A stretch of DNA of 63,999 bases, the filler included. It is 4 parts of 4 records of this genome, joined end to end, with 100 filler letters (N's around TTAATTAATTAA, not from the genome) between each part and the next. Parts side by side here need not be neighbours in the genome. Positions count along the whole stretch, not along the records: positions 40,764 to 58,829 come from DRR378314_961; 3 more parts are not named here. One strand, 5' to 3'. Below are positions 1,726 through 53,674 of this stretch, piece after piece; position 1 is the first letter of the stretch, and each line of letters opens with the position of its first letter. A program made the position numbers and the translations under genes. The notes under the pieces are model-generated. The model was not told the DNA's origin. It did no database searches and saw only the letters and a list, made by a program, of their open reading frames with translations.

Positions 1726-1741
1726 GATGAAAGGCCCGCCC

Positions 1742-3256: not shown

Positions 3257-3268
3257 TACCTCCCCCAC

Positions 3269-3309
3269 TGGGCAGGCTAATCCCGTTTTCGGGAGGCCTG
3301 CCCATTCTT
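3269..3309 (+). terminator. Stem-loop after matB, probable terminator
   Basis: TGGGCAGGC (3269-3277) pairs with GCCTGCCCA (3296-3304), with an inner TCCCG/CGGGA stem. It is followed by a short TTCTT tract. Confidence 0.55.
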
Positions 3310-3505
3310 CGGCCAAGGGCTTGCTTCAGTTACCCCCGCCAGATGTCGAATTAAGATTTCCACCAATCTCACCTTGATTTTACCGAACTAAGCCAAGAAT
3401 TCACGCTCGGGTCTCGGAAAACCCATGACTTACGACCGGTTCGGTGCAAGCATGCGCTCAGCAAAGGCGCTTGCGGGGAACATCCTCGCCAAACCGGGGG
3501 AACAG

Positions 3506-5020
3506 ATGGCAGAAGAACCGCTCAGCGGCCCTGAGATCAAGAAGATCATTTCCAAGAGCCGCAAGAAGCCTGTGGGCTTTGCTTTCAATCCAGGCAAAGA
3601 TGATGCCGACGGATATCTCCTCCTACATCTAAAGAAACCACCCAAAGCGTTGGGAAAACAGGCCAAGTCTGAGGGCGAAGGCGGCAAGGCCGCGTTTGGG
3701 ACCTTTGAGACCGAAGGCAAAGTGATGAAGCTCGACTGTGAGCTGTCCATCCCTGCGCTCAGCAAGAAGCTGATGAAATACCTCAAGTCCCAGAAGATCA
3801 GCCTCCAGCCGGTGGTCTTGGGCGAAGAGGATCTGGACGCGGCTCTGGCGGAATTCAATCAGGCTGAGGATGCCTTCAACGACGAGTTTGACGACGACAG
3901 CGATGATGAGGACGCGCCCGTATCAGGCGGTGCTGACGCTACAGAGGTCGAGGCACGCGTCAAGGCAATGGCAGCAGCCTTCAAAACACTGCCGGACCCC
4001 GCAAAGGCAAAGCTCGCCAAACCCGTTCAAGCCATTGTTGCCGCATTCAAGGCAGGCAAGCTTGAGCAGACGGCGGCAGCGCTCGACAAGGTGATGCCCG
4101 CCATTGAAACGGTGCAAGCCAAAGGCAAAACACCAGACACACCGGACGGTCAGGTGGATCGTGGCCAGCTTGAAACACAGTTGAAGGACCTCGCCAGCCG
4201 AGTGAAACAGTTGGAAGATCCGCAGCGGTCGAAACTCGCCAAAGCCGTGCAGACCCTAGTTGGCACACTCAAGGCCGGAGATCTGGCCAAGACCTCCGCT
4301 GGCCTCGCCAAACTCGCCCAGGCCTTGGATAGTCTGGCGCCACAAACCGCTCCGGAAACGAGTGAAGACAACAAGCTCGATCCCAATCAGGCAAAATACA
4401 CCCAGCTCTTCACCGCCATGGAACCTCTGGTGCAAACCGCATTGCGCGACAATCGCTTTGCGGATGAAAAATCCCGCGGTGATTTCAAAAAGCTCTGGGA
4501 GTGGGCCAACAACAACGCTGCCGATGGTATCTACGACAAAGCCGTAGCTGCCCTGACCCGCGCCAAACCTTTGCTGGAGGCCGCCAGGGCCTCTGACGGG
4601 TCGGATTATGCCGCGGATGTGCCTGACGATGTGAAACCCTTCGCGATCTCGCGCCTCAAGTGGAAATCCACCTTGTCGACCATTCGGTCTGAACTGAAAA
4701 AGCTGCAGGCGTCGATCAAATCGGTTTGCGGCAGCGACCCGGAGCTGAAACCCGTGGCCGACGGCGTTGGTGAGCTTGATGAGTATCTCAACCGATTGGA
4801 CGAACGCCTCGCGGACAAACTCGACGAGGTCGTCAACGCTTCACCAGGCGATACCCGCGACGCACTCAAAGCGCAGGCCCGGGGCATTCTGAAAGAGTAT
4901 CAGTCCGAATTGAACTCGGATTTTTTCAAAGCCGTGGACGCTCAGAACGGTTTCACCAATGTGGCCATTGCCTCGACCGCCAACTCCGCTCTGTCAAAAA
5001 TTGAGAGCACGCTCAAATAA
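3506..5020 (+). CDS. Hypothetical helical protein A (cassette gene 1)
   Basis: Long ORF (open from 3425); purine-rich RBS-like GGGGGAA before ATG 3506. It has a basic N-domain, an acidic linker, two ~74-aa-spaced repeats and a C-terminal helical domain. No family recognised. Confidence 0.8.
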   Translation: MAEEPLSGPEIKKIISKSRKKPVGFAFNPGKDDADGYLLLHLKKPPKALGKQAKSEGEGGKAAFGTFETEGKVMKLDCELSIPALSKKLMKYLKSQKISLQPVVLGEEDLDAALAEFNQAEDAFNDEFDDDSDDEDAPVSGGADATEVEARVKAMAAAFKTLPDPAKAKLAKPVQAIVAAFKAGKLEQTAAALDKVMPAIETVQAKGKTPDTPDGQVDRGQLETQLKDLASRVKQLEDPQRSKLAKAVQTLVGTLKAGDLAKTSAGLAKLAQALDSLAPQTAPETSEDNKLDPNQAKYTQLFTAMEPLVQTALRDNRFADEKSRGDFKKLWEWANNNAADGIYDKAVAALTRAKPLLEAARASDGSDYAADVPDDVKPFAISRLKWKSTLSTIRSELKKLQASIKSVCGSDPELKPVADGVGELDEYLNRLDERLADKLDEVVNASPGDTRDALKAQARGILKEYQSELNSDFFKAVDAQNGFTNVAIASTANSALSKIESTLK

Positions 5021-5050
5021 TTCGGTCTTGGACCGACAGGAGTCTTTGAT

Positions 5051-7486
5051 ATGCCCTGGGATGATTTATCCAAGCAGCAGCAGACGTTCATCAAGACCTT
5101 TTTTAAATCCGGAAAAGGTTGGTACAAACTCGGTAAAAAACGAAACCTGAAGAAAAACAAGGACCTGATCGAAGGCTATCGCGGGGCACAACAAGCCGTC
5201 CTGTCAGCTTTGCGCGGTCTTGAAGGATCGCCCGAGCATACGTTTTTTAACGACGAGTATCTGAACGCCAAACGCATGAGCGAGGCCAACGGTACTTTCG
5301 TAATCGGCATCAAGGATTTTCAGAACATTGCCCGCCGCGCCTTGCTTCAGGGCATTACCAACGCCCGCAAGGGTAAGGAAGGTGGCGAAAAAGCCGCTCT
5401 GGCCGACGGCTATTATCGCAAGATCCAGAGTGCGTCATCCAATGACCAACCTCTGCTCAAGGAGCTGGAAACCAAGGTCGAAAGCCTCGCGGCATTGAAC
5501 ACGGAGAACGCTTGGGAGGTGCCGGACACCCCGTTCGCACAGGCGCTTGCGGATTTATCATCGCAAAAACACAATGTAATCCGCAACGCAGCTGAAAACA
5601 CTAAGCTCTCGATAGATGAAGCCAAGCAGGCAATGGACACCGCCCTCGCGGATTTCATGGCCATCCGCAAGGATATCATGGCGAAGGTCGACGCGGCGCT
5701 CAAGGACAGCGCCGCATTGGAAACTCTCGCGGAGGCCATGCGGAAAGCCCCCGAGTTCCGTCAGCTGCTACATGAGTGCCAGGTTCTCACCGACGATCTG
5801 GTTGACTGGGAAGTCGCAAAGGCCGACGTTTTCGCGAAGGCCCTCCGCGACATCGGTACCAAAGCCGAGACATCCCGCCGCTACGATCTGGAGCTGGTCA
5901 CACTCGCCAAATGGAAGACACAGGCCGAGGCAGCCCGTACCACCGCTGAAGCCGCCTTTGACACCGAGGCACAGAAGCATCAGACCACGGTGAACGCACT
6001 GACCACCGGTCTTTCCGGCCTCAGTGACAAGGTCCCCGACAAACAGAAAGAACAGCTCGCCGATCTGATCGCTATGGCAAATCTTGCCCTGAACGAGGGC
6101 AAGAACATCGGCGCGCTTGCTCCACTTGGCAGTCTTTTGGCCAAAGCGGATGCATTGCTGATCCAACTCAGCCATGCAGAAGTGATCAACCAGAAGACAG
6201 CGACGCTGATCACCCAGATTTCCGAGGTAATCGGCAAACCCGGCGGCACCGACAAGCTGCCCGCATCGGAATTGCAGCCCACCAAGTATGACGAGCTGAA
6301 AACTGCCTTCAACGAACTTCACGAGGACTGGCAGGAGATGCCCCCGGAGGCCGCCAACACAGCCTTTGATGCGCTCGCCACTCAGGTCGCGACTTTCAAG
6401 ATCACCACTGATGCAATGCGGGTTTGGCGGGACGGCATGCTCAGCAAATACAAGGCGACCGACAAGAAGGTGAACGCCCTTGCCAAGGCGATCTTTGATT
6501 ATGGCAAGGACGAACACGGCAGCGTGGCGACGATGTTGCGCAAGGCGTTTGGCGTAACCGGAGACAAATACGAGGGGGCGCTGCGCGAAACCCTCTCTGA
6601 GGCGCATGAAATGATTGTGGGTGAGGATCCGACGCTGCAAAACTACGCCGAAATCAAACTCGCGGATGTCGAAACCAAGACCGACACCTGGCTCAATGCC
6701 ACAGCGCGCCTCCGCGCGGCGGAAAAGGCGGGCACCGCGCCGGTTCCCGCAGACATGGGCGTCGTCGCGGAGTTGCTGAATGATCAGCAGGCCGCCGTTG
6801 ATGCCCGCGAGGAAAAAGAGCGCCGGATCAAAGACTTTGAAGCGCGCACCACGCAGACCGCCAACAACCTGAAGACCCTCAAGGGCAGTGACCAGATCAC
6901 CGAACAGACCCGCGAGGAATACGAAGCCATAGAGCAGCTCAACAAGTCTGCGTTGAGCCAGGCCAAGGGCGGCAATCTCGAGGCGGCCGAAGAAATTCGC
7001 TCCCGCGTGCAGCACCGCATCACCCGCGCCATGGGCAACCCACCGAAACCTGCCAACAATTTCGACAAGCTCGCCGGGATCAGCAAGAGCTGGGCAGGCG
7101 CCGTGAAGCGTCTGAGCGAGGATCTGTCCAACCTGGCGCGCACCGCCACCGATGCGGTAGAAGAGGATAGCGCCTTTGGCGGTGACAAGGCAGCGCAAGC
7201 CAGATCCGGCCTGACCGCAATGCAAAGGGTTGCCGAGGCATTTGATGCCTCTGCCTTCGACGCCGCCGCCCAAGTGTTGGGCGATCCCGGCACGGCAGAC
7301 AACGAAAAAGCCCGCAAACAGGCGCGCGAGGATGCCCTGCGTCTGGTCCGGCTCTATCGCGGCTACATGAAAAGCAACAAGCTGGTTCAGCACGCTGCAT
7401 TCAATCCGTTCAAGGTGTCCGGCATCGCGGTACCGATGAATGCGATCCTGAACTACATCGAACTTGAAGTACTGCGCGGCGTTTGA
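5051..7486 (+). CDS. Hypothetical 811-aa Ala/Lys/Glu-rich helical protein B (cassette gene 2)
   Basis: AGGAG RBS at 5038-5042 and a long ORF 30 bp after gene 1. No signal peptide and no family recognised. Confidence 0.85.
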   Translation: MPWDDLSKQQQTFIKTFFKSGKGWYKLGKKRNLKKNKDLIEGYRGAQQAVLSALRGLEGSPEHTFFNDEYLNAKRMSEANGTFVIGIKDFQNIARRALLQGITNARKGKEGGEKAALADGYYRKIQSASSNDQPLLKELETKVESLAALNTENAWEVPDTPFAQALADLSSQKHNVIRNAAENTKLSIDEAKQAMDTALADFMAIRKDIMAKVDAALKDSAALETLAEAMRKAPEFRQLLHECQVLTDDLVDWEVAKADVFAKALRDIGTKAETSRRYDLELVTLAKWKTQAEAARTTAEAAFDTEAQKHQTTVNALTTGLSGLSDKVPDKQKEQLADLIAMANLALNEGKNIGALAPLGSLLAKADALLIQLSHAEVINQKTATLITQISEVIGKPGGTDKLPASELQPTKYDELKTAFNELHEDWQEMPPEAANTAFDALATQVATFKITTDAMRVWRDGMLSKYKATDKKVNALAKAIFDYGKDEHGSVATMLRKAFGVTGDKYEGALRETLSEAHEMIVGEDPTLQNYAEIKLADVETKTDTWLNATARLRAAEKAGTAPVPADMGVVAELLNDQQAAVDAREEKERRIKDFEARTTQTANNLKTLKGSDQITEQTREEYEAIEQLNKSALSQAKGGNLEAAEEIRSRVQHRITRAMGNPPKPANNFDKLAGISKSWAGAVKRLSEDLSNLARTATDAVEEDSAFGGDKAAQARSGLTAMQRVAEAFDASAFDAAAQVLGDPGTADNEKARKQAREDALRLVRLYRGYMKSNKLVQHAAFNPFKVSGIAVPMNAILNYIELEVLRGV

Positions 7487-7511
7487 GCCGATCGACGAGG
7501 GAGGAGCCCCC

Positions 7512-10500
7512 ATGCCCATGACGCCCGAACAGACAACCTGGATCGGCCAGGTGACCGGTGTTGCCGCACAGGCAGAGCAAGCCGACGCGGATTTCAAGCA
7601 GCGTCAGCACGGCGCGCAGATGATCCAGGATACACTGACCGAAGAGGCGTTGCAGGAATTGCAGGCGGCCTTTTCCGCGATCGAAGTGGAAATGAAGAAC
7701 GGCAAGACCATGCCGCTCCTCGATACCGCGAAACACGACCCTTTTGCCGAGGTGGACACATACGCCGACATGCCGGGAGCCAAGCCGATTGACGGCGACA
7801 AACTCGGTAAGTTGCAGGAGCAGTACCAGAAAATTCTCGCCATGCAGGCCCAGCTGGAGCAGCTCGACTATTACAAGGTGCCAGAACCGGCAGATCCGGA
7901 TTTCCCGACCTACGAGGAAGCCAAGGCAATCAAGGAGGCCAATGACCGCATGGCGCGGGATCTGTGGCAGCCGTTGATGCGTCAGGGGATCATTCCGGAA
8001 AACATGATCAATGACCGCCATTCCGAGGTCGTCCAGACCTTTCAGGAAAGCTCTGCCCTCTACGAAGCCCGTCTGCAAGAGCATTCAAAGAACATGTCCA
8101 AGGCGGATGTGTTCCTCGAAAAGTTTGCCCCTGTCGAAGCGATCGGAAAGGCCACGATCAACGCCGCTGGCAAACTCACAGGCTTTGCCGGCTCCGTGGC
8201 TGCCGTGACAGAGAACGCCAAGGTGCTGACCGACGCCAAGGAAGCCGCCGATGTCATCCAGATGTGTGACGTGGTCTTCACCGCGACCTGCAAGATCGTC
8301 CCAACCGTGGTGAAGGAACGCGACGCGATCAAGGCGGTCGATATATTCAACGACGCACTTGGCTCCACACTCAAGAGCGCAGGTGTCGACCCCACCGTGA
8401 CTGATTGCGTGACCGGCATCATCAACGGCGCCGCGCGCTCTGCCAACGCGGGCAAGCTGATCGCCGAGGGTGATCTCGAGGGCGCGTTCAACGAGTTTGG
8501 CAAGGCGATCACCTCCAGTTTTGGAGCCACGGGCGACAAGCAACTCGCCGAAGTGGGCAAACTGATCGGCGACAATATTTCCCGCCTCGCCACCGCCAAT
8601 GGGGCAGTCAAGGCAATGGCCGAAGACCCACCCCAACCCGGCAAGGCGATGGATTTCATCCTCGCCGAAATCGGCAATGCAGTGGGGTCGCCCGAGGTAA
8701 AAGCGGTGATCGGGATCTTGCGCACAGGCGCACAGGAGTTGCCCGACGCGATCACCAGAAAGGACGCCTTTGCTGTCACCGACACGCTGACAAAGATGTT
8801 GGGAAAATCTCTCGATGCGGGCGGCGTAGATCCAAAGATCGCTACGGCTATCACGTCTTCGGTGACTGCAGGTGCGCGCGGCGCGGCAGCAGGCAAACAT
8901 CTCGCAGAAGGCAATGTCGAAGCGGCGTTCAAATCGTTTGGCGACGGTATCGCAACCGGCCTTGCCGGCACCGGAAATACCGACGTCGCCGCCATCGGTG
9001 AGTATATCAAGACCGGTCTGGAAACCGCAGCTCAGGCCACCGCAGTCAAGCAAGCCATGGCCAAATCCCCACCCGACACACTGGCCGCAATGCAGGCGAT
9101 GGAAGCCGCTGCCGTCGGTATCATCGGTTCCAGCGGCGTCAAGAATGCAATCACCGCCATCGCCGCGGCCGAGGACAGCACAAAACTGGGCGAAGATCTG
9201 GAAACTGCCCGCGCCAAATTGGAAGAGGCGGCCAAGCTCGCGCAGGACAGCACCAACGAGTACGGCGAAATCGACGGTCCCGACGCCACGCCCATTTCGA
9301 TCGAGGCCATCAACAAGCTGAAGGAACAAAAAGTACTGGAGGAGGCCGCCGCTGCCCGCTCCGAAGAGGAGAAGCTGCGCGCCTTCATGGAAGAAAAAGA
9401 CGCCGCCTTCGAAGAACTCCTCGTCACCGGCTTTCCGCCACCGACCTCGGACGCGGAAGAAATCGCGGCGGCGGAACAAAGGCGGCTGGACTCGATGGAA
9501 ACGCTGATCGCAATCGTTCAGCGGGACAAGATGACGTTCCAACTGGCGCAAAAGATCGTCACCAAAGGCCCCGGGCTGATCGCAGATCTTGTGCCGGGCA
9601 TGGGCCTTGTCCAGGCCTGCGCCGAACTTGCCTTTGCCATCGCTGAGGCGGTCAAACACGCCGAACAACTATTGATCTGGATGGAGAATGTCGAGGACGC
9701 AGGGGCGGCCGCAACTGTGCAGCTCGATGCCATGATGAACCGCTACGGGCTTGAAACAAAACAAAACATCATTGCGGATATCAAAGTTGGCATCAAGGCC
9801 GTGAAAGTCGCGGGCGAAGCTACGAAACTCTCTCCTGCCGCTCCGATCGGACTGGCGATCTCTTCTGGCGCTGATGCAGGTGAGGCTGTGCTCGACCTTG
9901 GTGTCGAGATCGAGAAGAACGTCGTCATCGCTCAGGCCTGGGCCGCTTACAAAAAAGCTCTTGATCAGCCACAGAACCGCAAGGCCGCACGCATGGCGCT
10001 GCGTAAAAACCCGACCCTGTCGAAATACGCCATGGCCTATGGTGCAAAGGTTGAAGGCAACGCCATCGCAAAAGAGGCGATGCGACGCTGTGGCATCAAC
10101 GAACGCACGCTGGCCCAACCCGACACCAATGTCGACAAGGTGGTGACATACTTGGAGCAGCTCTATGACGAGGATCCGGTGGTGGTACGCGCCGTGGGCA
10201 TTGCCAACGAATGGCACCCAGGCGAGATCGAACTGACCTATGAGAGCTTCTGCCACTTTCACCTGAAGGCAACAACAGTGGCCAAACCTATCGTCGCGGG
10301 GCCTGAGGCGGGCCGGATCAAAAGTACTCTGGCCACCTATGAAACCGCAGTCTCGGCATTCGAGCAGGCGGTCAAAGCCGCTGCCAGCACCGGTACACCG
10401 CCGGACGAAACCGTGGAGAACGCGGCGATAGAGGCGGTCATCGCGCTTGGCAAAGCCTTGAAATCCTACGATCCGGAAGCCGAGACTGGTGGGTTGCACA

Positions 10501-34737: not shown

Positions 34738-35532
34738 ATGAAGCTGTTCCTCAAAATCATAAAAATCCTATTGGCCACTGTTTTTACGGCCTATATTGGT
34801 CTTATAGCACATCAATTGGTATTTCAATCCAAAGAAAAACGGTTCCATATTGCAGGAAACATGCAAGGACATGGATGGTCCCAAACGATGTTTGGGATTC
34901 TAAATTGGCAACACCCCGATTATGCCGCCGCTTTTTTTGAGCGCTCCGTTCCTTTTAATAAAAGAGGGGACTATGCAACAGGATTTTATTATTTAGACAC
35001 CGCGGTGGATTTAAAACCTTTGCATCACCTAGGATATAGAGGGTATATGAAATTACGTTTTCTCCGGGATTACAAGGCCGCCTTGGCAGATTTTGATCGT
35101 TTGGATGCCATGACACCCAATGTGGTGGATGCGCCTTGGGGCGAGGACATCGATTTTTTACGTGGTGAATGCTACTATGGCCTTAAAAATTATCCGAAGG
35201 CCTTGGAACATTTCGAGCAAAGTGTGGCAAATCAGGGTGCGGATTGGGCAGATGTGCAAGCCTTTGTGTACCAAGGTTTATGTCATTATGAAATGCAACA
35301 CTTTGATGAAGCCATCACTGCTTTTGAAAATGGGTTAACCCAATACGACACGACCTGTGAAGCTTATTTTGGTTTGGCAAAAACCTATTTAGCGGTAGGG
35401 GACACCCTAAGTGCAAGAAATAACTTGAACAAGGCACAAGAAACCTTGCCTTACAAGCATACGGACATCTACAAGGAGTACCTCAATGAAATCTATCAAG
35501 AGGATTTGAATCGGTTGAAAAAGCGACTTTGA
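34738..35532 (+). CDS. Tetratricopeptide repeat protein
   Basis: Repeated A..DF, RGECYY.L.NY.KA..HF, GL.HY....F.EA...F and AYFGLA.TY TPR helices; N-terminal TM. Confidence 0.8.
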   Translation: MKLFLKIIKILLATVFTAYIGLIAHQLVFQSKEKRFHIAGNMQGHGWSQTMFGILNWQHPDYAAAFFERSVPFNKRGDYATGFYYLDTAVDLKPLHHLGYRGYMKLRFLRDYKAALADFDRLDAMTPNVVDAPWGEDIDFLRGECYYGLKNYPKALEHFEQSVANQGADWADVQAFVYQGLCHYEMQHFDEAITAFENGLTQYDTTCEAYFGLAKTYLAVGDTLSARNNLNKAQETLPYKHTDIYKEYLNEIYQEDLNRLKKRL

Positions 35533-40532: not shown

Positions 40533-40584
40533 CCCACATCGTTATTAAAGGCAAAGAGGCTGAATTCTAAAAGTATTGAAACAC

Positions 40585-40663
40585 GTCATTCTGAACCTGT
40601 CGGTAGGCTGGTTCATTTCAGAATCCAATCATACTGATAAACAAATCACTATGAGAACCTGAA
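40585..40663. repeat. REP-like palindromic repeat at contig end
   Basis: GTCATTCTGAA...TTCAGAATC arms around an insert. A second half-site (GAGAACCTGAA) begins where the contig breaks. Confidence 0.5.
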
Positions 40664-40763
40664 NNNNNNNNNNNNNNNNNNNNNNNNNNNNNNNNNNNNN
40701 NNNNNNNTTAATTAATTAANNNNNNNNNNNNNNNNNNNNNNNNNNNNNNNNNNNNNNNNNNNN
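40664..40763. other. Artificial contig spacer
   Basis: N-run, TTAATTAATTAA, N-run. Confidence 0.98.
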
Positions 40764-41461
40764 ACGACAGCGGAGCTTGCCGCGGTTGACCCAACGCCAG
40801 CGGCATTTGCCGGTCCACTTCCCTCCTTTACAGAGTGAAGAATTGCGGACGAGCTTCCAAATGCGCTGCACGCGGGTGAGTTGCTGCTTGACTAGTTTGA
40901 CTTGCTCTTTGGCGCACGAGTGCGCACCGGATGCATTTTTGCAATTCGACCGCGCTTTCGTCAGCTCTTTCACTTGTTCTTCCTGTGCACCGATCCGATT
41001 CTGCAGCTCTTTCATGAGACGGGCGATGAGCCCCTGCAAACGCTTGTGGTGGCCTTGTCGGAGCTTTTCATCCCCGTCCTCAAGAGCATCATGGACGCGG
41101 AGCGTTTCTGCAACAAGTGCTTTCTCCTCCTCGCTCAGCGTCGATTTTTTCTGCACAAATGCGCGCACTTCTTTGAGCGTCTCCAGTTCCTTTTTCGAGC
41201 TTTCAATTTCCTCGCGCAAAGAGCGGATTCTAGTTGAAAGAACTCCAGGTCGACTGCAAAGCGTCTTCGTCTTGTCTGCTTCCTTTTCCATCTTAACCTT
41301 GCTCTGGTACTCTCGGCCAACAGACTTTCTCAGCGTGTTGACGTACGAGCAAGCTGAAGACTTTCCGGCCATTTGGCCAAGAACGCTTACGTCCCCAGCA
41401 GTGAATTCAGCACCCAAGTCATTGCTAATGAATGATTCAAGGTGAGCAGCTAGCTGACGCT
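40764..41461 (-). CDS. Exon of a eukaryotic coiled-coil protein (3'-truncated)
   Basis: Open frame preceded by a pyrimidine tract and CTGCAG acceptor; heptad-like E/K/L-rich sequence with scattered Cys. Confidence 0.55.
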
Positions 41462-41942
41462 CTGCAGCGAGACGGGCCGGCGCAGTTGGGAGAGAAAAGT
41501 GAGCAAGGCGCGAGTTTGTAGGAACGCAACGCAGGACAGCCAGAGATTTATCGCACCTCTATGAAAGAAAGCGTGTACAATGATATTTATGTTCCACTCC
41601 TCGCATCAGAATATAGAGGATTTCTTATTTTCGTGCGAACAGAATGCAGAAATAATGGTCCTTGCTCTGGCAAAGATCGCGAGATCTGGAATTAATGCGG
41701 CCAGATCAGGCTTCCACAAAATGGTTACGCATAGGGCTTACTCTACACATTCAAGCGAGCAGGCGACCTGGTCGAAGCCGCACAGGGTTCGCGCGCGTCC
41801 CGTTCGATCTCGAAGCCGAACAATCGCAATGCGCCAAACTTGGCGCGGGGAATTGTTTCGCCTGGGGGCCCCCCAAAAGAACATCCTAGCTCGATCCCAA
41901 AGCGGCGTGTAGAGGCGGTGCGAGCAAAACAGAAAACGAAAC

Positions 41943-42347
41943 GTTTGAATAGCCTTCTACTGGACCGAAATTCGGAATTCGTAGTGCTCTTGTACGTAGT
42001 TTCCCCCCGAAAGCTCTCAACGTGTCCCTCCACGAAAGGAGTTCGCGGTGAATTTGCGCTAACGTTGAGGAACGAAAGCCGTCACTCGTCCTATGTCGGG
42101 AGGCGTGCTGAAGCTCGACACTGCCACAGCTACGTCGGTCGTCGCATACGACTCGCAAAGTAATCATACGTGAACCTTCGGAACGAGGAGAAATTACTGG
42201 TGGTGCAAAAAGTTTCGCGCGATATTCATGCATTGCAGCTACATATGAGACTGGTTTACTTTCAAGAAATGGTCCCAACGCACCGTCTGCGAGCGACAGC
42301 GCCGCCAAAGAACATATTATAAAAACGCACGCATTCCTCATGCGCAT
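41943..42347 (-). CDS. Possible first exon with signal peptide (may belong to the coiled-coil gene)
   Basis: MRMRNACVFIICSLAALSLADG looks like a signal peptide, and an AT-rich promoter-like tract lies upstream (about 42420-42510). The splice path was not resolved. Confidence 0.35.
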
Positions 42348-44102
42348 GCTGCCTCCTCCGCCAATTTTTACCGTACGGAACGCGGGGGGTGGGCGCGCCC
42401 CTGCGCATATTGCGTGAGTAGCTATAATTACAATAACAATCTATCAAATTACTTGGAAATATCTTGTCGCTAACCGCGTATCTCAATAAAAATGTGCTAT
42501 TGAAAATTGAGTTCCTCAGGATAGCGAGCGTTTTGTCGCGCGGGGGCCCGGACACCACAGCAGCGACTGCGCTGCTTGTGCCGACCCGTTTGCGACCGTG
42601 CTCATTCTCTCCCTTTGTTGTAAGACATCGTGCGTTTTCGCATTCGCGTGCTATTGGTTGGATAGATGAAATTAGTGATGTTGTTTATAGGAGAAGTCGG
42701 CACGGCCTCTAACGTGCCGTTTAGATCGTTCCCTACAGTACTTCCTGGACGCAACGGAAGCCGTGTCGGTGCGGCAACGCCTGTCTGCCTTGGTCGCGAG
42801 CTGGACTTCTTCCTTTGTTTGAACTCAACTTTGCGGACACGTTCTTACGCTGGAATGGAAGTCGGAAATTGCGTGTTTTCGCCCCGACGTAATCTGTGAG
42901 GACGCATGATGTGCAAATATAAATGGTTCTGAAGGCGATCGTAGAGGCTCTGTGAAATGGCAAGACGGCACTTTACGTCCTCTACGAGCACGTGCTCTGG
43001 TTCCTGCGGTTTCCGTCCCCTGATTTTCTTTTTTCTGCAGAATCGCCAACCGCTGTTTGGCACGGCCTTTGCAAAGCTACAGCCCGTTTTCTCCGCTTCC
43101 TGGTGCGCTCCCTTGGGACAAGGGGTGCCCTATTGAACGGATTCAATTACACTACAACGTATATTTTTTCCTGCACGCGCGGTGTGCAACCTGAGGAGGA
43201 TGTTCAATTGTCCTCCGACTACTTCTTCGGCGGGGCGCATGCGTCGGCTATTTTCCTGTGGTCCAAGGAGGGAACAGCTGCTCTGTCCGATGGCTCGTGA
43301 GCTCGCGCGCGTGCGCGAGCGTGTGATTTTCCGCCACAGGATCGCTTTGCTCGACGAACTACTATGCTTAGTAAAAGAAGAAGGAATCTTCTAATGATTG
43401 CGGTGGTCCATCTAGTCTTCGTGAAGTGTTCCTCGTGGATCTCGTGGTGAAAACTTGGTGCGCGTACGCTGTCGCGCAGTGCTCGGTTCGGGAGTCGCGC
43501 CGCTCCGGCTTCTTCCGCTCGCTGGGCTTCGTGGCGCAGCGTTCTGCTGCCGCACAGTGGCCGCGCGTGCGGCCCCTTCATGCCGCGCCTTTGCGAGAAC
43601 GCACAGTGACGCCCAGTGCCGAAGATGCGCGTCCCAGCGGGAATACAGAGAAAAAGGAGATGAAGAACGAATTATCACGCATGTATTGGCACAACGAGCC
43701 GAGCGCCTCACGTTTCGCCGCATACAGGCTCACAAAGCTCCGGGGCGCGTCGGGGGCCTCGTCAAGCCGCTGGATGTGCACAGTGGCATACGTGGCGCAC
43801 GGTGCGGCCCCTTGAACCCAACGTGAACACATTGCGCGTTGCGCGAGGCTCGGACGCGCGGCGTAAGCACCGGATGGACGGGGAGAGGAGCGCTGCTTGC
43901 GTGCCCATAAAATACAGATAAAGACTTAGTCCTCGTACACCTCCACCTTGACTTCACCACTGTCGAACAAGAGCAACATATCGTACGCACGTGCGCGAAC
44001 GAAGATTAGAAAGCCATATAGGCACGGGTTCTGTCGATTCCCTGCGCACAGTACGCCTTCGCTGGGAACAACTTCCCGCTGTGTATGCTGGAGAGGTCTG
44101 GT

Positions 44103-46592
44103 CTAAGCAACGAAGCAGAGCTCATGTCGAGGCAGCGGAACGAAACACGCATGTACCCCGGAACTATCCCGTTGATGAGAATCACGCTTGCTTTCAAGAA
44201 CTGCTACAGGGGACTGCGTACGCTCGTTGCTAGTGTATTCTATCTGAACGTACGCGTTTGAGGTTGACGGGTCGGCGCGGGGCCGATTCCCCGACGCGGA
44301 CAGCGCGCGCGCCCGCGGGTTCAGCTCCCGAAACTCTTCCAGCTCGCTCGCGTCTTTTTCGGTCAACTTTTCTGCCTCTGCTTCTTCTTTATCTTTCGTA
44401 GAGGCACCTTTTGACTTTCCCAGCAACTGCGATCGTGCGCACCAGATAAGGTACGCAGGTTATACAGGAAAATCATACACCCCGGCGGCGCGAAGGCAAT
44501 GGCGGCAGCAGCGCGATGGGATCGCAAACATCCGCGCAAAGTCCGTTCGCGTTCTCGACGGAAGATAGCAGAGGATGGCCAAAAAGAACCACACCTTTCC
44601 TCACAATTTTCGAATCAGCATGAGATTCCAAACAAACAAACAAACAAACAAACAACGCATGTACCTACAATCGCTAAGCGTCCTTTTGCGTTGGCGTACG
44701 GGGTGGAAGATGCGCCTACGAGCTCGTATCGTGCGCAACCGACGGTGTGGACTGCACTTTCGCACCTTGCGACCAAACTGCAGCCCCATACGAGCACCAG
44801 CGCCAAGGAACTGAAGACCACCGCCGCGGTTTTCAGCCTCCACTTCATCGGCCTCGTCCATCTCAAAGGGAAGGAGCATTGAGGTGCAGTAGCGACACCG
44901 ACTTGCTTCCGCAGGGACTTCGGAGCGACAGAATGGGCATTCCTTTTGTGTCTGCTTCTTCTGCGCTCCAAGCGCCACCTATGTGCCGTCGGCAGCGGAA
45001 CGGCCAGCGCCAGCAGAGCATCGCAGAAGATGTGCCGTCGCAACCGCGGGAGAGAGAAAAAAAATAAGAAATCGCCTTCAATTCATCAAAAAAAAACGTA
45101 TCCCACGCGACAGAAGCACGGCGCAGAATCTCGCCTTGTTCCTACGTGTGTAGTGGAGGCCACCCGTACCTGTAGTCGCTGCATTGGCGTTAGAATCCCG
45201 TAGTACACAGAGAGCGCCAGGAGGAGGAATGATATTACCGAATTGATAAACGTTCCATATTTGAAATTTGATCCATTTACTTTAAAGGTCAGAGACGAAA
45301 AGTCCTGCTGGCCTCCAAGCGCTGCTATACTGGGCGTGAGCATGTTCTGCGCAAGGGAGTGCAGCAGAAACACGAAGCAGAAGTGCACGCACGGTCAGCA
45401 AGAGCTTTGTGGTCTTTTGGCAGGGAGCGGTTTCCCTCGAGGAGAACTGCCTCAATCGCAGCGGTGCTACGCACTAAAGCACAGACAAATCTGCTTGAAT
45501 ATAGATAACGATTGCTATATCACGCGTCGATGCTCGTGCGATTCTGTCGCACTTTCCGCAAGCCCCGGCTGGGCACACTCTGCAGTTGCGCAGCACGACA
45601 CGTGCGGCAACGCGCCGCAAACGAAACGAACGAGCGCGTGTGCTTCTGCCGCGTTGCTACTCGCAAACAAGGTGCAGGCATCGCAATCTCCGCACGTGAA
45701 TTCGGATGGAATACCGCGGTTTCGGTTCGTACGAGACAAAGCGAACGCGACGCGCCCTGTGACCTGGAGTGGCCGTGCTGCGACCGCCGCAGGCGTGGCG
45801 TTTGCCCCAGCACATATGGACGGTGGGCTCGCTGGGAGTGTACGGGATGTGCGCTGCACAGTCCACACACCCGAAACGCCCGCCCGCTGCGGTGCGCTGC
45901 TATGCAGCAGCGCGTGGCCAGTCGCTGCAAGCTCCCTCTCTCATACAGCGCTAGCTTGCTCGCTCAGCGCTTCCTTGCATGCACAACTGCCTGTCGCATA
46001 CATACACCTGCGCGCGCACGCAAGTGGCAGATGCGTCCGAGGCGGAAACAGTATGTTCTTTCCGGGGAGCACGCATCGGCGGGCACGCGAGGAGTTGTCC
46101 GTGTTGCCGTACTTGGAACAAGGGGACGGCTCTTCAGCGAAACGCACGCTGCGGTGAGCGCGCATGCTCCCCGCTCGTCGAGCACTGCTGCAACGCTGCT
46201 GCTTCACAAGCAACAAGCCTACAAAAGGTTGGGGGCAACTGATATGCTGCTTACAAAGGTGTGCGCTAGCGGGTGTACTGGTGAAACTGTAGGCTCTACG
46301 AGAGCGCGTCGTTCGCGGTTCGGCTCCAAACTGCGCCGCGGCTCGGCGCAGACAGCAGGCGCAAGCGTGGCGAGAGAAAACGCACACTCGCCGCCTGATG
46401 CGCTGGCAGCCAACTGCTGCGACGTCTAGTCTTTTCTCTGTGCCGTGCGCGCGATGGTCTCTGGAGCAGCAGTGTACGTACCGCTACAAAAGAAGAAACG
46501 AGTTCTTCAAAGGCTATACCCATGATGTAACCGACCGTGTTGTCGAGAATGTTGCCCTCCAGCAGGAACTCGCGAAAGCCCTGCAACACCAT
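44103..46592 (-). CDS. mscL: Spliced large-conductance mechanosensitive channel homologue (MscL family), about 274 aa
   Basis: Exons 46592-46482, 45346-45170, 44978-44766 and probably 44426-44103, all with GT-AG phase-0 introns. Product: MVLQGFREFLLEGNILDNTVGYIMGIAFEELVSSFVA|NMLTP...DFSSLTF...YGTFINSVISFLLLA..VYY|...KECPFCRSEVPAEASRCRYCTS. Exon 4 is less certain. Confidence 0.85.
44629..44653. repeat. (AAAC)n microsatellite in the inferred third mscL intron
   Basis: CAAACAAACAAACAAACAAACAAAC tract. Confidence 0.8.
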
Positions 46593-47106
46593 TTTGCGCC
46601 GCCTCTTCGCTGCGACCTAGTGGCTGTGCACACAAGTACGCGCTGGTTGTCGGTAGCCGACGAACACCTGACCGCACAGCCTGTCTCGATGCGTAGACAA
46701 GTATCTTCAACGCCTATCGTAGCCGTGTATATTGAAATCCTCACCGACAGGTACGAGGGCGGGGGGGCGCCTTTTCTTTCGAGCCAGAGAGAAAAAGGCG
46801 TGCGGTCCTGGTGCTCGTCGCTGCAAGCGTGGCGATTCCTTCGAAACAGGGAAGCGCGTTGCCGAGCAAGACAACACCGAAGTCGGACAAGGGGTTGCAG
46901 TGATCAAATCCTGATCTATGAAATGGAAATTTTACCCCTAGGATATTCAAGTGACCGAGTAAAGTACATATTTTCGTACTTATGTTATATTTCAATTTTT
47001 GTACTTGAATAAAATTGGTTGGCGTGCGCGTGCGTTCCTCATGCTGCGGTATCGATAGGTTTTCTCTCCAGATTCCCATCAGCATTCGCAAGCGTCATAC
47101 GTCACA

Positions 47107-48993
47107 ATGGCAGATGTACGTGATTGCGGCGCGCGCTTTTCTTCGCTTTGCACCTGCCGGCGCCAATTCCCCACTGCACAGCACTTGGCGCTGTTCTTCA
47201 AAACTTCGTGCGCCCGTCCCCGTACTCCTCTCTGTTGCTAACCTGGCATTTTGTGCAAATCACCACAGAGAGATCCTAGTATTCATTTTCGGTCTTTCGG
47301 GTAGCGAGGGCGAGGCGAGTTCGGCGCGTCGTTGTGTTTGTCGCACTGCGCGGTGTGGCGCGACTGCGTCCGCGGAGCCTCGCTGGAAAGAAGAAAAAAG
47401 GCGCGCAAAAGAGTGCGCTCGGCGCAGCGCCGTGCTTGTAAGCTCTGGCTCGGTGCCGAAAGAGAGGCCGCAGTTGGTTGGTAGCGCGCAGTGCCAGGGG
47501 TTCCTCGCAAAGCGATATTGCATTCGTGCATAAATTTATTTCGCTTCAACATATAAAGCGCGCTATTTGGTCGGCCGTTTGCGGAGCATAGCGAACTTGG
47601 TATGGCAGCAGTGGGCAAACTCTCCGCGTCGGCCTACTCCGAGACAGTGTGTAGCGCTCTGTGCGGTCCTCGCGCGCGTGCGCGCGCTGCGTTTCGCATG
47701 CCGCCGCAGCACTTCGTGCCAGCCGCGGGATCGTCGCGCACAACTTGCGTGGCGCCTTGGCACTGCGTTCATGTTTGTTTTTTCTATTCATTTTCTTAAT
47801 TTCTTTTGGTTACGTTGCGGGAACGTTTTTATTCCTCTTTGCAGAAAAAAGGATCGAAGAAAGCGGTTTCTCGTTCGGTTCGCGCCGGACTTCAGGTGCG
47901 TGGGTCTTTTCGTTTGGTGGTGCACGGAGTTTCAGTTGGGGTGGGTATAGCGGCGCCATTTGTCTGCGTGACCGGCATGTAGTGCGGAGTGCCGTGGGGG
48001 GCCGATTGGTAGCGCCCCGCCACCCACGCGGCCGAGGTTCTCGAGTTTCTCATATCGACAGTCATTTTGACTGAGGCGCGAGATTGCGAATCCTTTTTTC
48101 CCGCGTTTTTTTTCCTCCCTCGCTTCACCTGTCTAGTAGTGCTCGCGCGCCTTTTGCAATGTTGCGTCGCACTGCATATCGGCACGGGAGAAATCTCCTT
48201 TCGCGCACAATTGGGATTTACGTTTGATTATTTTTGCAAATAAGTGAGCGAATCGCATGTGTATTTTTACGTTTGGGAAGAATGGCGGTCGTTTGCGAAA
48301 ACTTTGTATGCGGCGAGGTGGAAAACTGTATCGCCAGTCGCCTGCTGCAGCCACGGCGTACAGCAGCAGCGAAATCGCGCGCGAATCGCCGTGTGTTATG
48401 TTCCGTGCCAGGGTGCTATCGGGGGGGAGCAAGAGTATTGTACTTCGAAGACTCGATTTCTTTTTCCCTTGCCTGTGCAGCTGAGTATCAGTTGTCATTA
48501 TAGGGTTACTTATTTTCCCCCTTGACCATCGCCCCGCCAGCGCAGCCTCGCGTGTCTCGTGGACGCCCTTGGCTGGCTGCGATCTGGAACTGTGTGCACG
48601 CAGGAGTCTCCCTGCTATTCCCAGTCTTCGCAGAGCGAGTATAACGCCGTTTGCGCTCCATTGCTTCTGTGTCTATATTCGAATCTTGCTTCCGAATAGT
48701 TCCCGGTCGGCCGTGTGCACCGCTTCCTGAAGGACCGTGCGTCGCGCCAGGGCCGTGTGGCGGCTACTGCTGCCGTGTACACCGCCGCCATCCTCGAGTA
48801 CCTCACCGCCGAAGTGCTGGAGCTTGCTGGCAACGCGTCTAAGGATCTCAAGGTGAAGCGTATCACCCCGCGCCATCTCCAGCTTGCCATCCGTGGTGAT
48901 GAAGAATTGGATACCCTCATCAAGGCTACGATCGCCGGCGGTGGTGTCATTCCTCACATCCACAAGAGCCTGATCACCAAGGGAAAGAAGTAA
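47107..48993 (+). CDS. H2A.Z: Histone H2A.Z (three exons, about 117 aa)
   Basis: Exons 47107-47115 (MAD, inferred), 47845-47895 ([17 protein letters not shown]) and 48700-48993 (FPVGRVHR...[44 protein letters not shown]). The last carries the H2A.Z-diagnostic sequence. Confidence 0.93.
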
Positions 48994-49587
48994 GCCTCTT
49001 TCGTTGCTTCACGGCGCATGGAGCGGCGTGTGCTGACTTGCACTGTCCGTTCCAGCGTCTGACTGTGTGCGGCGCACGGGAACGCGAGAGCGCGCGCTTG
49101 CAAAATTTGCTGCAAAGTGCGGCGACGATCTGCTAGAGGTCCCGCGGTGCCGTCCGCGCCTCCTTCCCTGCTGCTTGCTCAAGGGACTAGATATCATGGA
49201 TGCGGCTGTACCCGAACGTGGTTTGCGATAACGGCAACACACCGCAGGTCAGCCTTCCTCGGTTTGTTTTGCCGCAATCACTAACGTGTGGTTTTCTTCT
49301 TTTGGCCGCTGTGATAGTGTAGTGTACAAATGGGGCTTGTTTCCCTCCCAAAAAATATAGTGCTGTGCTTCAGTGCCCTTGCACGTTTCCCGCGAGCACA
49401 TGTATACGTTCCGTCATGCACGGCACTGATCTGCCTGCATAGGCGAAGCTCATACAAAAAAAAAAAAAAGAAGAAGAATTCACCCCACTCCCATATCACT
49501 GTTTCGACGGGGCGGTGCAGCGCGTGTACGGCCGCACGCTCTCAATGGCAACGAGGGCCAGGTGCGCCCGCCCCGGCGCCGGAGCGG

Positions 49588-52500
49588 CTACCGCGACGCG
49601 GGACTGGCCGAGCGCGCGCCGAGCTCGATGTCGCCGGCGTGCCGCCGCGCGCGCGACCCGCGCACAGGCTGCGCGCTCAGCGCGAGCGCCTTGCTCTCCT
49701 GCAGGACGGGGCCGACTGCCATTTGCTGTGCACCGTGCCACCGAGGTGGTATTCCGCGAACATGAAACAACAAAACAAACAAACAAACGCATAAGAAATC
49801 GCACCGCCAGCAGCGAAAACGCGGGAATGAGGCGCGGTACGGCAGAGCAAGCGCGACGAGATCACCCGCAGGAACAACGGCAGCGCTCGCGTGTTCGCCC
49901 GGATACCAGAACAGCGTTACACGCGCAGCAGAGCTACACGCAAAGGAGAAATGATCATTCCCAACACACTATTAGACCCTTGAACAATACAGCTCATGAA
50001 TAATTATTTTACTTGTGCACAAGGCACGGACCGAGCTATCTACTTCGGGTGCAGAAAACGGCGAGAGCAGGTCGCTTCCGCGGCGCCGCTGCGTACCAGG
50101 AGGACGACCGTTGCTTGCATCGCTGATACGACAGCAAGGCAGAATCGCAGGGACGCCCGCAAGTCCTCATCGCCCAGCGCAGTGAAGAGAATTCCCATTC
50201 TTACACACACAGATACAGCGACCATGAGCGAGAACGCCGCGAAAACACGTCGCAATGTGCGCCGCAGAGCGACATTGTGCGCGCGCTCCAGCAGGACTCG
50301 GACGGTGCGACCTGGACAACCACCCGCAACGTGCCATTCGCACACAAGACGTAAACAACGAGCATTGCGGTAGCAGGCGTAGCGAGTACACACTACACGA
50401 GATCAACATAATACATAACGTTTCGTTTGCGCGTTGGCAAGAGGGATAGCGAGTGAAAGTCCACGGCGCGTGACCGCGGTCAGAGACAGCGCGCCGCACT
50501 CTGTGCAGAAACGCGGAGCGTACCGAGAAAGAAAGCGCACGTGAGCGCATATAACGCAGTACCGAGGTGCGCGAGAACAGGTGTGACACAGACTCGGGCA
50601 CTTTCATCATAAAAGAAGGACGGAAGCTCATGAAATACATCCGTCTACATGGGAGAACCATTTCAAACGCACAAGAAAGCGACGGAACTCACGGTTAAGC
50701 ACACGTGATCCGCGTCGATGGAGCACGACGTGTTCGCCAGAGCGAAGAGCGGCGAATAGCCGCGTCCAATCATTACAACTACGATGCACGTTGAGCAGCG
50801 ATAGTGCTCGTTGCGAGAAAAAAGCGATACCCAAATATATGAAGAAACCAAGAAAAATCGAGAAACACCTGCTGGATAGGTCTTCTTGCATCTTCTATAC
50901 ATCAGTGCGCAGGGCAAATGCGGATCGGAATGTACACAGCGCATGACTCGGTGGAACTCCCCCACAAATCGACAGCAAATGGCATTATAAGGGCGCCAAG
51001 AAGTTTTTAGGAAGCAAAACGGCAACGCAGTGCAAAAATTTCCCGCGTATCGATACCAAAAGGTGCTCAAAAGGTGTTTTGAGCTCGCTACCTTCTTCTT
51101 GTGACAGTGGAAACACCATATCACAAACCAAGCGAAACCACGCGAAAGCAAGCAAGAAAAAAATATAAAAACAAACAGCAAAACCAACAGCAATCAAATT
51201 AACGACGCGCTGCGCTTTCCAGTCCGAATCTGAACACCCTGAATCACGAGGAGAAACAGAGGTTGGTCCAACAGTGTCCTCTTCACATACGTACATCGTG
51301 CCCAACATCCGCCAAGCCGCTGGAGCTCAGGAGAGCAATATGTAACAATAGAACAGGTATTGCGGCCACTAGCGTTGGTCGAATCACATCCCAGCCGGTG
51401 GAAGGCTTTTCCGACAAGATCGCCTCGATCGAGATCGAGCGCTTCCTCTCTCCCGGCTCGCTTGCTCTTCGCCCCAGAGCGCTGCATTCCCCGAGACGTT
51501 CGTGCCCGCGCACCACGATATGCACTCCGTAAGAAAGAAGAACGTGGAGTTTGACAACGGGAGCATCTCGTGCATTGACACATGCAAAGTGCAAAGTACT
51601 CCCAGTCTGATCGTCTTCCGCCGGTATATGGGCGCTCTGCGCACATCACGACCACACCACAAGCAACGTTCCGACCACAATGCCAACGCACAGTGCGCGA
51701 TAGGAATTCTCAAACATACACGCACGTAGATACATAGAGAGAAAACCAAGACTATGGCGCGTGAAAGACGATGTAGGCGTCGCTATGCGAGAAGATTCGA
51801 GCGCAAACTACAGACAGGTACGGTGTGGTACAAAAGAGGGCACAGCACGAAGATCCGTTGCGTTTCGCTGCAATCCAAGTGCACAGGAAACGGCGAGGTG
51901 GTAAGGAACGTACTGGGCTTCTGTGCGTAAATAAAAGAACGCCAGTACGTATACCAGCGCTTCACCTGCGCCATCTCGCAGGAGACTGCACGCACGGCGC
52001 GGAATCGACCGAGTGAGAGGGAGCGAACAAAGAAGCGCAGAACAAAGGACCGGCGAAGCGACGAATACAAATGGTCTGCAAGTAGCCGCAAGGCTGCCGA
52101 ACACCGCTTCCCTCTCCGGCCCATAGCGCAAGCATGGAAAAATGGCGTATCGTAACTACAATGCAAACGACAAAATAGACCGCATTCAGTGTGAGGCGCT
52201 GAGCAACAGCGAGAGCCGCGCCGGCCGAAACGATCTTGCACAGGAGCGGCATTCACAGCTCGTAGCAGCACCGCACCTATGTATATGACAGAGGCGTTCG
52301 CGCGATGATCGCGAAGCGCCCACTCCGGTTGGGCCCCATACGGTATCAGATTCAAAGAGGTACCCGATCTGAGTGGAATTACAGCGGCAGAAAAAAACAA
52401 CAACACCCCAATAAGCGAGAAAGTGCAGCGAGCAGCAGAAGCCGTCTCCTGCAGTAGACGGATGCTGCCGCAGGTCCACACAAGACGGATGCGCCTACCG

Positions 52501-53142
52501 CACGCCGCCGGCACGCGCGACGCACGAACAAACAAACGCCATGGCGTACACGAGAAGCAACATACTTCCATTGGCTACACAGCGTACTGTACCAGATATT
52601 ACGGCGGCAAATGTGTATCGTGAGACCACGAGAGCAGGTTGGTTGTCGCAGTGCGGGCTCTGCGTCGTATACGACTCGGAGGAACAGGTCCACACCCGGC
52701 ACACTTCGAGCACGAGTATGGCGCACACGCAACGCATCTTCCCAACAATTGAAACTGTCACGAATTCACACTATTGAGCAAATGATCGAGGAACGTGAAG
52801 AGCACAGGGAGCGCTAGAACAACTCTCGGGAACACTCACACGCTGCCAGCGGTAGCAAGCAGCGGCAGCGAGGGGGAAGCAGCCACAGAGCGAAGCACTG
52901 CAACGTAGCGCAAGGCCAGCGCGCACTGTGCACGCGATTTTTCCTATTAGAGGTACGTAATTACAAAATCTTACCATCCACGTGGAAACGGCGAGGCACA
53001 TAGCAACACGCGCGGCCCAGAGCTTGTTTAGCGGGAGCTGTCGGTGCCGAGCCACGATCAGCACCGCCGTCGCCGCACCAACGCTCCACACGAGTGCTAT
53101 CAGAGCGACGATCCAGTCCAGTACCTCGGCCACCCCGTCCAT
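49588..53142 (-). CDS. Multi-exon, multi-pass membrane protein of unknown function
   Basis: First exon 53142-52975 (TM helix, GTAAG donor); penultimate 50311-50097 and last 49725-49588 splice in frame. Hydrophobic candidate exons lie between them but were not fully resolved. Confidence 0.55.
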
Positions 53143-53674
53143 CGCACTAGTCTATTTCTCTGTCTATATATATATATTTGATCGAGCAAGTAGAATATTT
53201 AGTGCATAGTACAGGAAGGCAGGGCGAGAACGGGCCGGCGAGGATGTGAGCGGCAAAGCGGGCGCGCGCGGCGGTGGAGCGGCTCTCGCGTGCGTGTGCG
53301 TTGCGCCGCGGCGCCTGCGAGTCCAGCGGCGGACGCGCCGGAGGGAGGGGGGGGAGAAACCGGGCGGGCTGGCCCCATGGAAGGGTTAAGCATATAGGGT
53401 ATATCATCCTTTCTCCCTCGCTCGCGCTGCACGCTCCGGAGGGGACGTGCTGCTCGTGTGCTGCAACGAGAGCGTACGCGCCGGTATTGCCTCGCCTTCC
53501 GTGTACGTACGGGCGTGGATCGTGCGCTCCCCGGTTGGCGCAGTGAGTCTGACTGGGTGGTATGAGACACGTCCCACCTCTACCACAACGCGCCGGCTGC
53601 TAGCCCCCAGCGCGCTCCGCGAGGCTGCTGCAGCATTCCGCGTCCCAGACCGCCGCTGTTGTATTGCATCCGCT

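Follow-up and report, generated by a model that had tools for sequence, protein, structure and literature searches.

A Spliced, Transcribed Gene for a Zinc-Ribbon Protein of the MscL Channel Family in a Marine Microbial Eukaryote

Bacterial MscL is a pentamer in the solved structures, and the MSL channels are the accepted case of a bacterial-type mechanosensitive family that eukaryotes have retained for osmotic control. A Neurospora MscL homologue was reportedly described by Pivetti et al. in 2003. The pertinent sections of a 2020 algal genome paper (PMC7652255) describe MscL as occurring throughout prokaryotes and MscS homologues as occurring throughout eukaryotes, with MSL2/3 located in the plastid envelope, and those of Prole and Taylor (2013, PMC3681921) report MscL in none of the pathogenic protozoa examined. 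The MscL passages of seven further papers (PMC11085791, PMC12806904, PMC5796728, PMC11092101, PMC7935092, PMC10552396, and PMC6727746) make no mention of a eukaryotic MscL. A full-text literature search, outside of which most subscription journals lie, returned no study of how any eukaryotic MscL functions among the passages retrieved and no paper pairing “MscL” with “zinc ribbon.” For a nematode-trapping fungus, a passage of a 2026 paper (PMC13463886) refers to unpublished work in which knocking out an “MscL-like channel” gave no trap-formation phenotype. Here we describe an MscL gene in a 63,999-base window (the whole stretch of DNA that was analyzed, four contigs joined end to end), on the contig that occupies positions 40764-58829. 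Very probably this is a nuclear gene with five exons, from a marine microbial eukaryote, that encodes a 235-aa MscL subunit of the ribbon type, extended by a lineage-specific charged tail of ~100 aa.

Parts of the region 43000-50000 are contained in five public runs, four of which (X1 to X4) were aligned to the locus. The MscL transcript is represented by one X1 contig of 1,198 nt, at a depth of 21.3, in which five minus-strand exons are joined. It aligns in the blocks 46834-46482, 45346-45170, 44978-44766, 44426-44254, and 43959-43678, with a sole mismatch at 46605, in the 5′ untranslated region (UTR). The skipped segments measure 1135, 191, 339, and 294 nt, and all of them have CT..AC ends on the plus strand, hence GT..AG in the direction of the gene. 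The coding parts (111+177+213+173+34) make up a frame of 708 nt whose only stop is the terminal one and specify 235 aa, the coding region running from 46592 to 43926 on the minus strand with the TAA at 43928-43926. A contig from which four GT..AG segments are missing can hardly be genomic DNA, and MscL is a genuine, transcribed gene of five exons.

Exon 1 (46482..46834, on the minus strand like all the exons and introns that follow), identified by the X1 contig and by Pfam, comprises at least 242 nt of 5′ UTR (46834-46593) and 37 codons (46592-46482) for the S1 helix and most of the first transmembrane helix (TM1), including the odd gate residues described below. Intron 1 (45347..46481; 1135 nt, GTACGT...CAG; X1 joint 45346>46482) separates it from exon 2 (45170..45346, X1 joints on both sides), whose 59 codons specify the end of TM1, a short periplasmic-type loop, and TM2. 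Across intron 2 (44979..45169; 191 nt, GTACGG...TAG; X1 joint, cut +2) lies exon 3 (44766..44978; 71 codons), with a linker, a CxxC-x10-CxxC zinc ribbon (Cys110/113/124/127), and the start of an acidic tail. Intron 3 (44427..44765; 339 nt, GTGCGA...CAG; X1 joint 44426>44766) contains an (ACAA)n-type microsatellite at about 44623-44664. Exon 4 (44254..44426; 173 nt, X1 contig) encodes a charged, Lys/Glu-rich stretch of tail, and beyond intron 4 (43960..44253; 294 nt, GTACGT...CAG; X1 joint 43959>44254) exon 5 (43678..43959, X1 contig) provides the last 11 codons, the TAA, and at least 248 nt of 3′ UTR. An in-frame stop is found 8 codons upstream of the start, the 242-nt 5′ UTR is devoid of ATG, and in alignments the protein starts straight at the S1 helix. 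MscL thus has no N-terminal presequence.

A preliminary description of this DNA, made from the letters alone, had foreseen much of this structure. Its two GT-AG introns of 1135 and 191 nt proved exact, the third intron that it thought probable is real (339 nt), the in-frame splicing that it proposed to verify with RNA reads is what the X1 transcript shows, in a clean 708-nt frame, and the lack of an N-terminal extension is borne out by the upstream stop and the ATG-free 5′ UTR. It erred at the 3′ side, ending the gene at 44103 where the coding region ends at 43926 and overlooking the fourth intron, of 294 nt.

Family membership was examined exon by exon, by scanning stop-to-stop frames against the Pfam MscL profile (PF01741, cut-off 27.4 bits), a check that had likewise been suggested beforehand. 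The frames of exon 1 (34.4 bits, E 3.2e-8, profile positions 2-36 of 123) and exon 2 (42.1 bits, E 1.4e-10, profile positions 27-97 of 123) each pass the cut-off separately. Eight of the nine Protein Data Bank (PDB) matches of exon 1 are MscL chains, the best at 29.6 bits, and the S1 motif F6/F9 aligns with the solved chains. Kyte-Doolittle hydropathy peaks only at about residues 19-49 and 67-97, corresponding to two transmembrane helices. When the joined product was compared by blastp with 150 listed relatives, residues 3-133 aligned with residues 1-131 of the bacterial protein P0043 (47% identity, E 5e-46), and collinearity with ribbon-type relatives of ~140 aa extends from residue 2-3 to about 133. 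The zinc-ribbon matches of the exon-3 frame are all below threshold, the best being Pfam UPF0547 (PF10571) with 19.2 bits against a cut-off of 29, a profile with which P0043 itself reaches only 28.4. The four ribbon cysteines, Cys110/113/124/127, are aligned to Cys in 307/337, 294/353, 284/324, and 305/324 relatives, respectively, and therefore exon 3 is part of the same ancestral gene; signature residues N14 (330/349), D17 (296/349), and G25 (348/368) are also kept. The ~100 aa that follow the ribbon are charged and non-hydrophobic; for the exon-4 tail no meaningful Pfam match was obtained, and a protein-atlas search gave no usable look-alike. By its sequence, the protein is a member of the zinc-ribbon subfamily of MscL, in which the ribbon replaces the C-terminal helix.

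By analogy with bacterial MscL, the subunits would assemble into a small homo-oligomer with a pore lined by TM1, which membrane tension would open. Both termini, and with them the ribbon and the tail, would then face the cytosol. Because there is no presequence, the channel would be expected in a non-organellar membrane, i.e., the plasma membrane, an endoplasmic reticulum (ER)-derived membrane, or an osmoregulatory vacuole.

The MscL gene lies head-to-head with a gene for histone H2A.Z (47050..49347, plus strand; exons ~47050-47115, 47845-47893, and 48698-49347; coding 47107 to 48993, 117 aa), the product of which matches Pfam Histone at 56.6 bits and Histone_H2A_C at 45.8 bits. X1 joins the H2A.Z exons at 47115>47845 and 47893>48698, skipping 729 and 804 nt with GT..AG borders at a depth of 222.7. 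The 765-nt H2A.Z transcript contig has its 5′ end near 47050 and that of MscL at 46834, hence no more than 216 bp apart, with a putative shared promoter region between them (46835..47049). The H2A.Z donor sites are GTACGT and GTGCGT; a GTACG donor begins H2A.Z intron 1 and every MscL intron but the third, and the remaining introns have a GTGCG donor. G+C content at third codon positions (GC3) is 0.60 for MscL versus 0.67 for H2A.Z. With four MscL and two H2A.Z joints and a histone neighbor on a single contig, MscL has the makeup of a spliceosomal nuclear gene. It is probably also long resident, combining four introns of the H2A.Z donor type, a putative head-to-head promoter region, and host-like composition.

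Two further observations concern H2A.Z. Low-depth X1 contigs (5.8-8.5) fall inside its intron 2, at 47885-48656, and represent either precursor RNA that has not been spliced or a little genomic DNA. In an oligo-dT marine metatranscriptome, record 12 of X3 (528 nt) corresponds to the H2A.Z 3′ end plus UTR (48841-49368) with zero mismatches, and therefore the organism or a near twin lives in the sea; many other metatranscriptome contigs match the conserved histone core alone, at 90-95%.

The window also holds two bacterial contigs, i.e., the assembly is mixed, which might suggest that MscL pieces were misplaced in a eukaryotic scaffold by bacterial contamination or a chimeric assembly. The bacterial pieces, however, are separate contigs beyond artificial spacers; the transcript removes four GT..AG introns between MscL exons; a spliced H2A.Z gene stands head-to-head within 216 bp; GC3 is close to that of H2A.Z; and the DNA of the MscL locus, searched against the complete bacterial genome to which one of those contigs is 96-99% identical (G001), gave no match. 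We regard the chance of such an artifact as negligible, and on the present data contamination or chimerism is refuted for MscL by the spliced transcript that spans all five exons. The preliminary description had rested its own dismissal of contamination on the in-frame splicing and on the adjacent, spliced H2A.Z gene. The adjacency and the splicing are both confirmed, on the same contig and by four GT..AG joints for MscL and two for H2A.Z in X1, and the argument is sound for the MscL contig, though not for the window as a whole, two pieces of which are bacterial.

The most unusual part of the protein is the TM1 gate region. Comparison of exon 1 with solved chains indicates that E. coli-type numbering runs one residue ahead of the window protein (residue n aligning with n+1), and residue counts were taken across 392 relatives on this basis. 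At four positions no relative has the residue of the window protein: E12 (E. coli R13; 0/359, commonest R in 345), N18 (L19; 0/353, commonest L in 308 and M in 28), T19 (A20; 0/353, commonest A in 341), and Y22 (V23; 0/358, commonest V in 214 and I in 113). The transcript equals the genome at these residues, and therefore they are not an assembly error. Sections of two papers on the bacterial channel (PMC2217497, PMC4380313) identify L19-V23 as the hydrophobic gate, in which polar substitutions result in easily opened, gain-of-function channels. In the window protein Asn and Tyr stand where this constriction would be expected, while the glycines, N14, and D17 are kept. The missing constriction lowers confidence in a typical MscL gating, not in homology. 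Judging from these substitutions, Asn, Tyr, Thr, and Glu in place of L19, V23, A20, and R13 would alter gating and probably lower the opening threshold, giving a channel that opens more easily rather than a high-threshold emergency valve; alternatively, the predicted gate may have shifted to a ring of Tyr residues.

The same residues can be read as signs of an expressed relic or a neofunctionalized protein, which would be transcribed but would no longer form a tension-gated pore and might instead serve, for instance, as a membrane-bound scaffold or regulator by means of its ribbon and tail. Four residues in the gate stretch that are unique among about 355 relatives, a very long terminal branch (see below), a 100-aa tail for which Pfam and the atlas search yielded no relatives, and the unpublished fungal knockout mentioned above, as far as PMC13463886 describes it, all agree with this. 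Yet the frame is intact over five exons, the remaining domain and the ribbon cysteines are conserved, and a depth of 21 in a small run means that the gene is not silent, and we view loss of the channel function as decidedly unlikely. A ribbon-type MscL subunit remains the preferred reading. One elaboration of it, improbable as it stands, is that the MscL scaffold has been retuned in a marine protist with little or no cell wall: a polar ring of Asn and an aromatic ring of Tyr would replace the hydrophobic Leu/Val lock, and with the ribbon and the long acidic tail added, the channel would become a conduit of an endomembrane or an osmoregulatory vacuole that opens at a low threshold or is regulated by metal, redox state, or phosphorylation. 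If true, this would be the first case of a eukaryotic MscL whose physiology departs from that of the emergency valve of bacteria, and a natural equivalent of the gain-of-function mutants made in the laboratory. A gate that is naturally polar and aromatic allows the hydrophobic-gate model to be tested directly beyond engineered mutants.

Relatives of the protein are numerous in bacteria. An exhaustive HMMER scan with exon 2 recovered 683 relatives at E<=1e-3, of which 38 reach E<=1e-10; the top match is 64% identical, and nearly all of them align gap-free. Of the 150 listed relatives, 44 have a CxxC-x(6-20)-CxxC motif just after TM2; the sources call these proteins “large conductance mechanosensitive channel,” and many of them have precomputed Pfam assignments to both PF01741 and PF10571. 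A profile search at near lengths, in which 7,976 of 8,000 candidates were significant, produced none closer to the window protein than the earlier relatives. Among longer proteins, a word-index search with exon 2 alone gave 110 candidates, none at E<=0.001, and a profile search at 334-2000 aa gave 21 fused or miscalled proteins of which one, from Scenedesmus, was useful. In one genome per prokaryotic species, a scan for the ribbon-MscL pattern returned at least 600 matches, of which at least 577 were confirmed and 80 kept; proteins were extracted from 62 of these loci, the other 18 failing a motif or length filter. The extracted loci belong to Acidobacteriota (25), Actinomycetota (17), Chloroflexota (3), Saccharimonadota (3), Minisyncoccota (2), and six phyla with one each, the remaining 6 being unlabeled. 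Gloeobacterales cyanobacteria carry the ribbon form as well (P0206 from Gloeobacter morelensis, and L038).

Three eukaryotic homologues have organism names, all Archaeplastida: a hypothetical protein of Micractinium sp. (KAL4442516.1, 190 aa), “mscL” of Scenedesmus sp. PABB004 (KAF8072762.1, 405 aa), and the product of transcript MMETSP0308 (MMETSP/EukProt) of the glaucophyte Gloeochaete wittrockiana (153 aa). They score 69-110 bits with Pfam MscL. In the algal-group homologues P0030, P0105, P0139, and P0068 a short Cys-rich stretch, absent from the window protein, comes right before S1; speculatively, it could be a lipidation site. The statement in the preliminary description that MscL is mainly prokaryotic and sporadic in eukaryotes is in line with these few algal and glaucophyte homologues and with the parts of PMC7652255 and PMC3681921 that deal with the family.

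Two trees were built. The FastTree analysis comprised 204 rows, i.e., the window protein, 139 of the 150 listed relatives (11 were dropped for length), the Scenedesmus protein, the 62 loci, and as a distant outgroup the MscL of G001, an ordinary, ribbon-less form (140.1 bits). It grouped the window protein with P0001, P0066, and P0091 and then with algal sequences; local support was weak to moderate (52-94). In the IQ-TREE analysis (58 rows by 140 columns), the five-member algal group was a clade (86/84), and the window protein branched near the base at a node with 58/0 support, on a branch of 1.35 against a median of 0.30. Constraining the window protein to join the algal group gave a log likelihood (lnL) 8.54 better than that of the free search, with an approximately unbiased (AU) test P value (p-AU) of 0.728; when the two Gloeobacterales were added to the constrained clade, the result was 10.51 lnL worse (p-AU 0.283). 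Neither constrained clade is rejected by the test. The family very likely has a bacterial origin.

Whether the gene came by a route of its own is another matter. A private transfer, in which bacteria donated a ribbon-type MscL directly to the protist's ancestors, independently of algae, with introns gained later, would fit the abundance and diversity of the ribbon subfamily in bacteria (at least 577 confirmed of at least 600 pattern matches), the ~140-aa bacterial-type proteins that are the best pairwise matches of the joined product, the position of the window protein outside the algal clade in the free IQ-TREE tree, and the patchy known occurrence of eukaryotic MscL. Set against this are the better likelihood of the window-plus-algal constraint, the FastTree position beside algal sequences (with weak support, 67-94), and the lack of a supported bacterial sister, no starred set containing the window protein; moreover, the four introns imply an old event whose donor signal may have been erased. 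At 140 columns and with a number of long branches, the trees show only that no private transfer is needed; we consider one possible but doubtful. The chances are about even that the gene was acquired in common with its glaucophyte and green-algal homologues and not privately. The idea, put forward in the preliminary description, of a horizontally acquired and domesticated channel is therefore upheld as to bacterial ancestry and not as to a lineage-specific transfer, given the algal homologues, the p-AU of 0.728, and the long branch. As for the circumstance that was to overturn that idea, nesting in a characterized, vertically inherited eukaryotic clade, no characterized eukaryotic MscL clade was found in the literature searched.

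An endosymbiotic origin, in which eukaryotic ribbon-MscL would derive from the plastid ancestor or have reached the protist through an algal endosymbiont, draws on the presence of the ribbon form in Gloeobacterales, on the named eukaryotic relatives being all Archaeplastida, and on the p-AU of 0.283 for a clade of the window protein, the algal group, and Gloeobacterales. But this constraint lowers the likelihood, the free tree places Gloeobacterales among Acidobacteriota and candidate phyla radiation (CPR) sequences, away from the algal clade, and the product has no transit-peptide-like extension. We judge this origin unlikely.

Several points weigh against a long-resident, ribbon-type MscL channel with algal affinities. 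MscL splicing is known from one contig of one run, the RNA label of which is a guess, and X2 to X4 cover H2A.Z only, with zero cover on MscL, a null result without bearing on expression in the sea. The four unique changes fall in the most constrained helix and, together with the long branch, could be explained by relaxed constraint or changed function. The free tree sets the window protein apart from the algal group (58/0), the AU result may share in long-branch attraction, and only three members of the algal group have organism names, P0068 and P0139 being Logan proteins.

The remainder of the window is of composite origin. Its four pieces are separated by three identical artificial spacers (16384-16483, 40664-40763, and 58830-58929; 264 N in total), each consisting of 44 N, TTAATTAATTAA, and 44 N, and therefore physical linkage across pieces is not to be assumed. 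Piece 1 (1-16383; GC about 0.59) has long, unbroken bacterial-type open reading frames (ORFs) and looks alphaproteobacterial; read by eye, the ORFs include malonyl-CoA decarboxylase-like, acyl-CoA synthetase-like, polyamine-type ABC transporter, and Hint-domain sequences. Piece 2 (16484-40663; GC about 0.41) is 96-99% identical to G001, a complete bacterial genome of 4.1 Mb, where it matches two contigs; it bridges C3:2090-21078 and C19:230858-236130, the matches overlapping at about 35393-35517. The final ~95 bases of piece 2 (40569-40663) match more than 20 other G001 sites at 71-87% identity and are a short dispersed repeat, at which the assembly probably broke. Piece 3 (40764-58829), which carries MscL and H2A.Z, is eukaryotic on its own evidence; a thioredoxin/protein disulfide isomerase (PDI)-like gene of several exons also lies on it (54028-55497, plus strand; Pfam Thioredoxin 43.1 bits in the first frame). 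Piece 4 (58930-63999) has long alanine-rich ORFs, one of 767 aa with no Pfam family and one of 497 aa with a GHMP-kinase N domain (25.2 bits). An Rfam scan of 40764-63999 matched no RNA gene. The assembly is a mixture of a eukaryote and bacteria, and therefore arguments from context were confined to piece 3; the window exemplifies how protist-plus-bacteria assemblies can mislead arguments of this kind.

Overall, the locus is a clean, transcript-backed case in which MscL has become an integral part of a eukaryotic genome. Reviews and genome papers, to go by the relevant parts of PMC7652255 and PMC3681921, still assign MscL to prokaryotes and see MscS as the channel family retained by eukaryotes. 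The locus directs attention to the ribbon-type MscL proteins of glaucophytes, green algae, and at least one further marine protist, a group so far unstudied.

Compared with bacterial MscL (PF01741; 9tiu_A, 28oa_A, 2oar_A, 3hzq_A), the window protein has the same order of S1, TM1, loop, and TM2 and has N14, D17, G21/G25, and A27-F28 in common, but its gene is spliced and nuclear, a zinc ribbon and a charged tail of ~100 aa stand in for the C-terminal helical bundle, and L19, A20, V23, and R13 of E. coli are N, T, Y, and E, respectively. The bacterial zinc-ribbon subfamily (P0043, P0206) is closer, with the same loop length, CxxC-x10-CxxC after TM2, and 40-49% identity over residues 2-133; its members end a few residues past the ribbon (~140 aa) and keep the motif R...DLAV(A/G)(V/I), whereas the window protein adds a tail and alters the motif. 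The MSL channels of eukaryotes are MscS-like, of a fold and family unrelated to this MscL. The homologues of Micractinium, Scenedesmus, and Gloeochaete, for which the searched literature gave no characterization, are eukaryotic and ribbon bearing like the window protein, to which they are about 42-47% identical, and some have C-terminal extensions; unlike it, the algal and glaucophyte proteins have a Cys-rich N-terminal extension before S1 and hydrophobic gate residues. Similar genes are thus already present, unstudied, in algal databases, and the window gene adds a member to this group rather than a new system.

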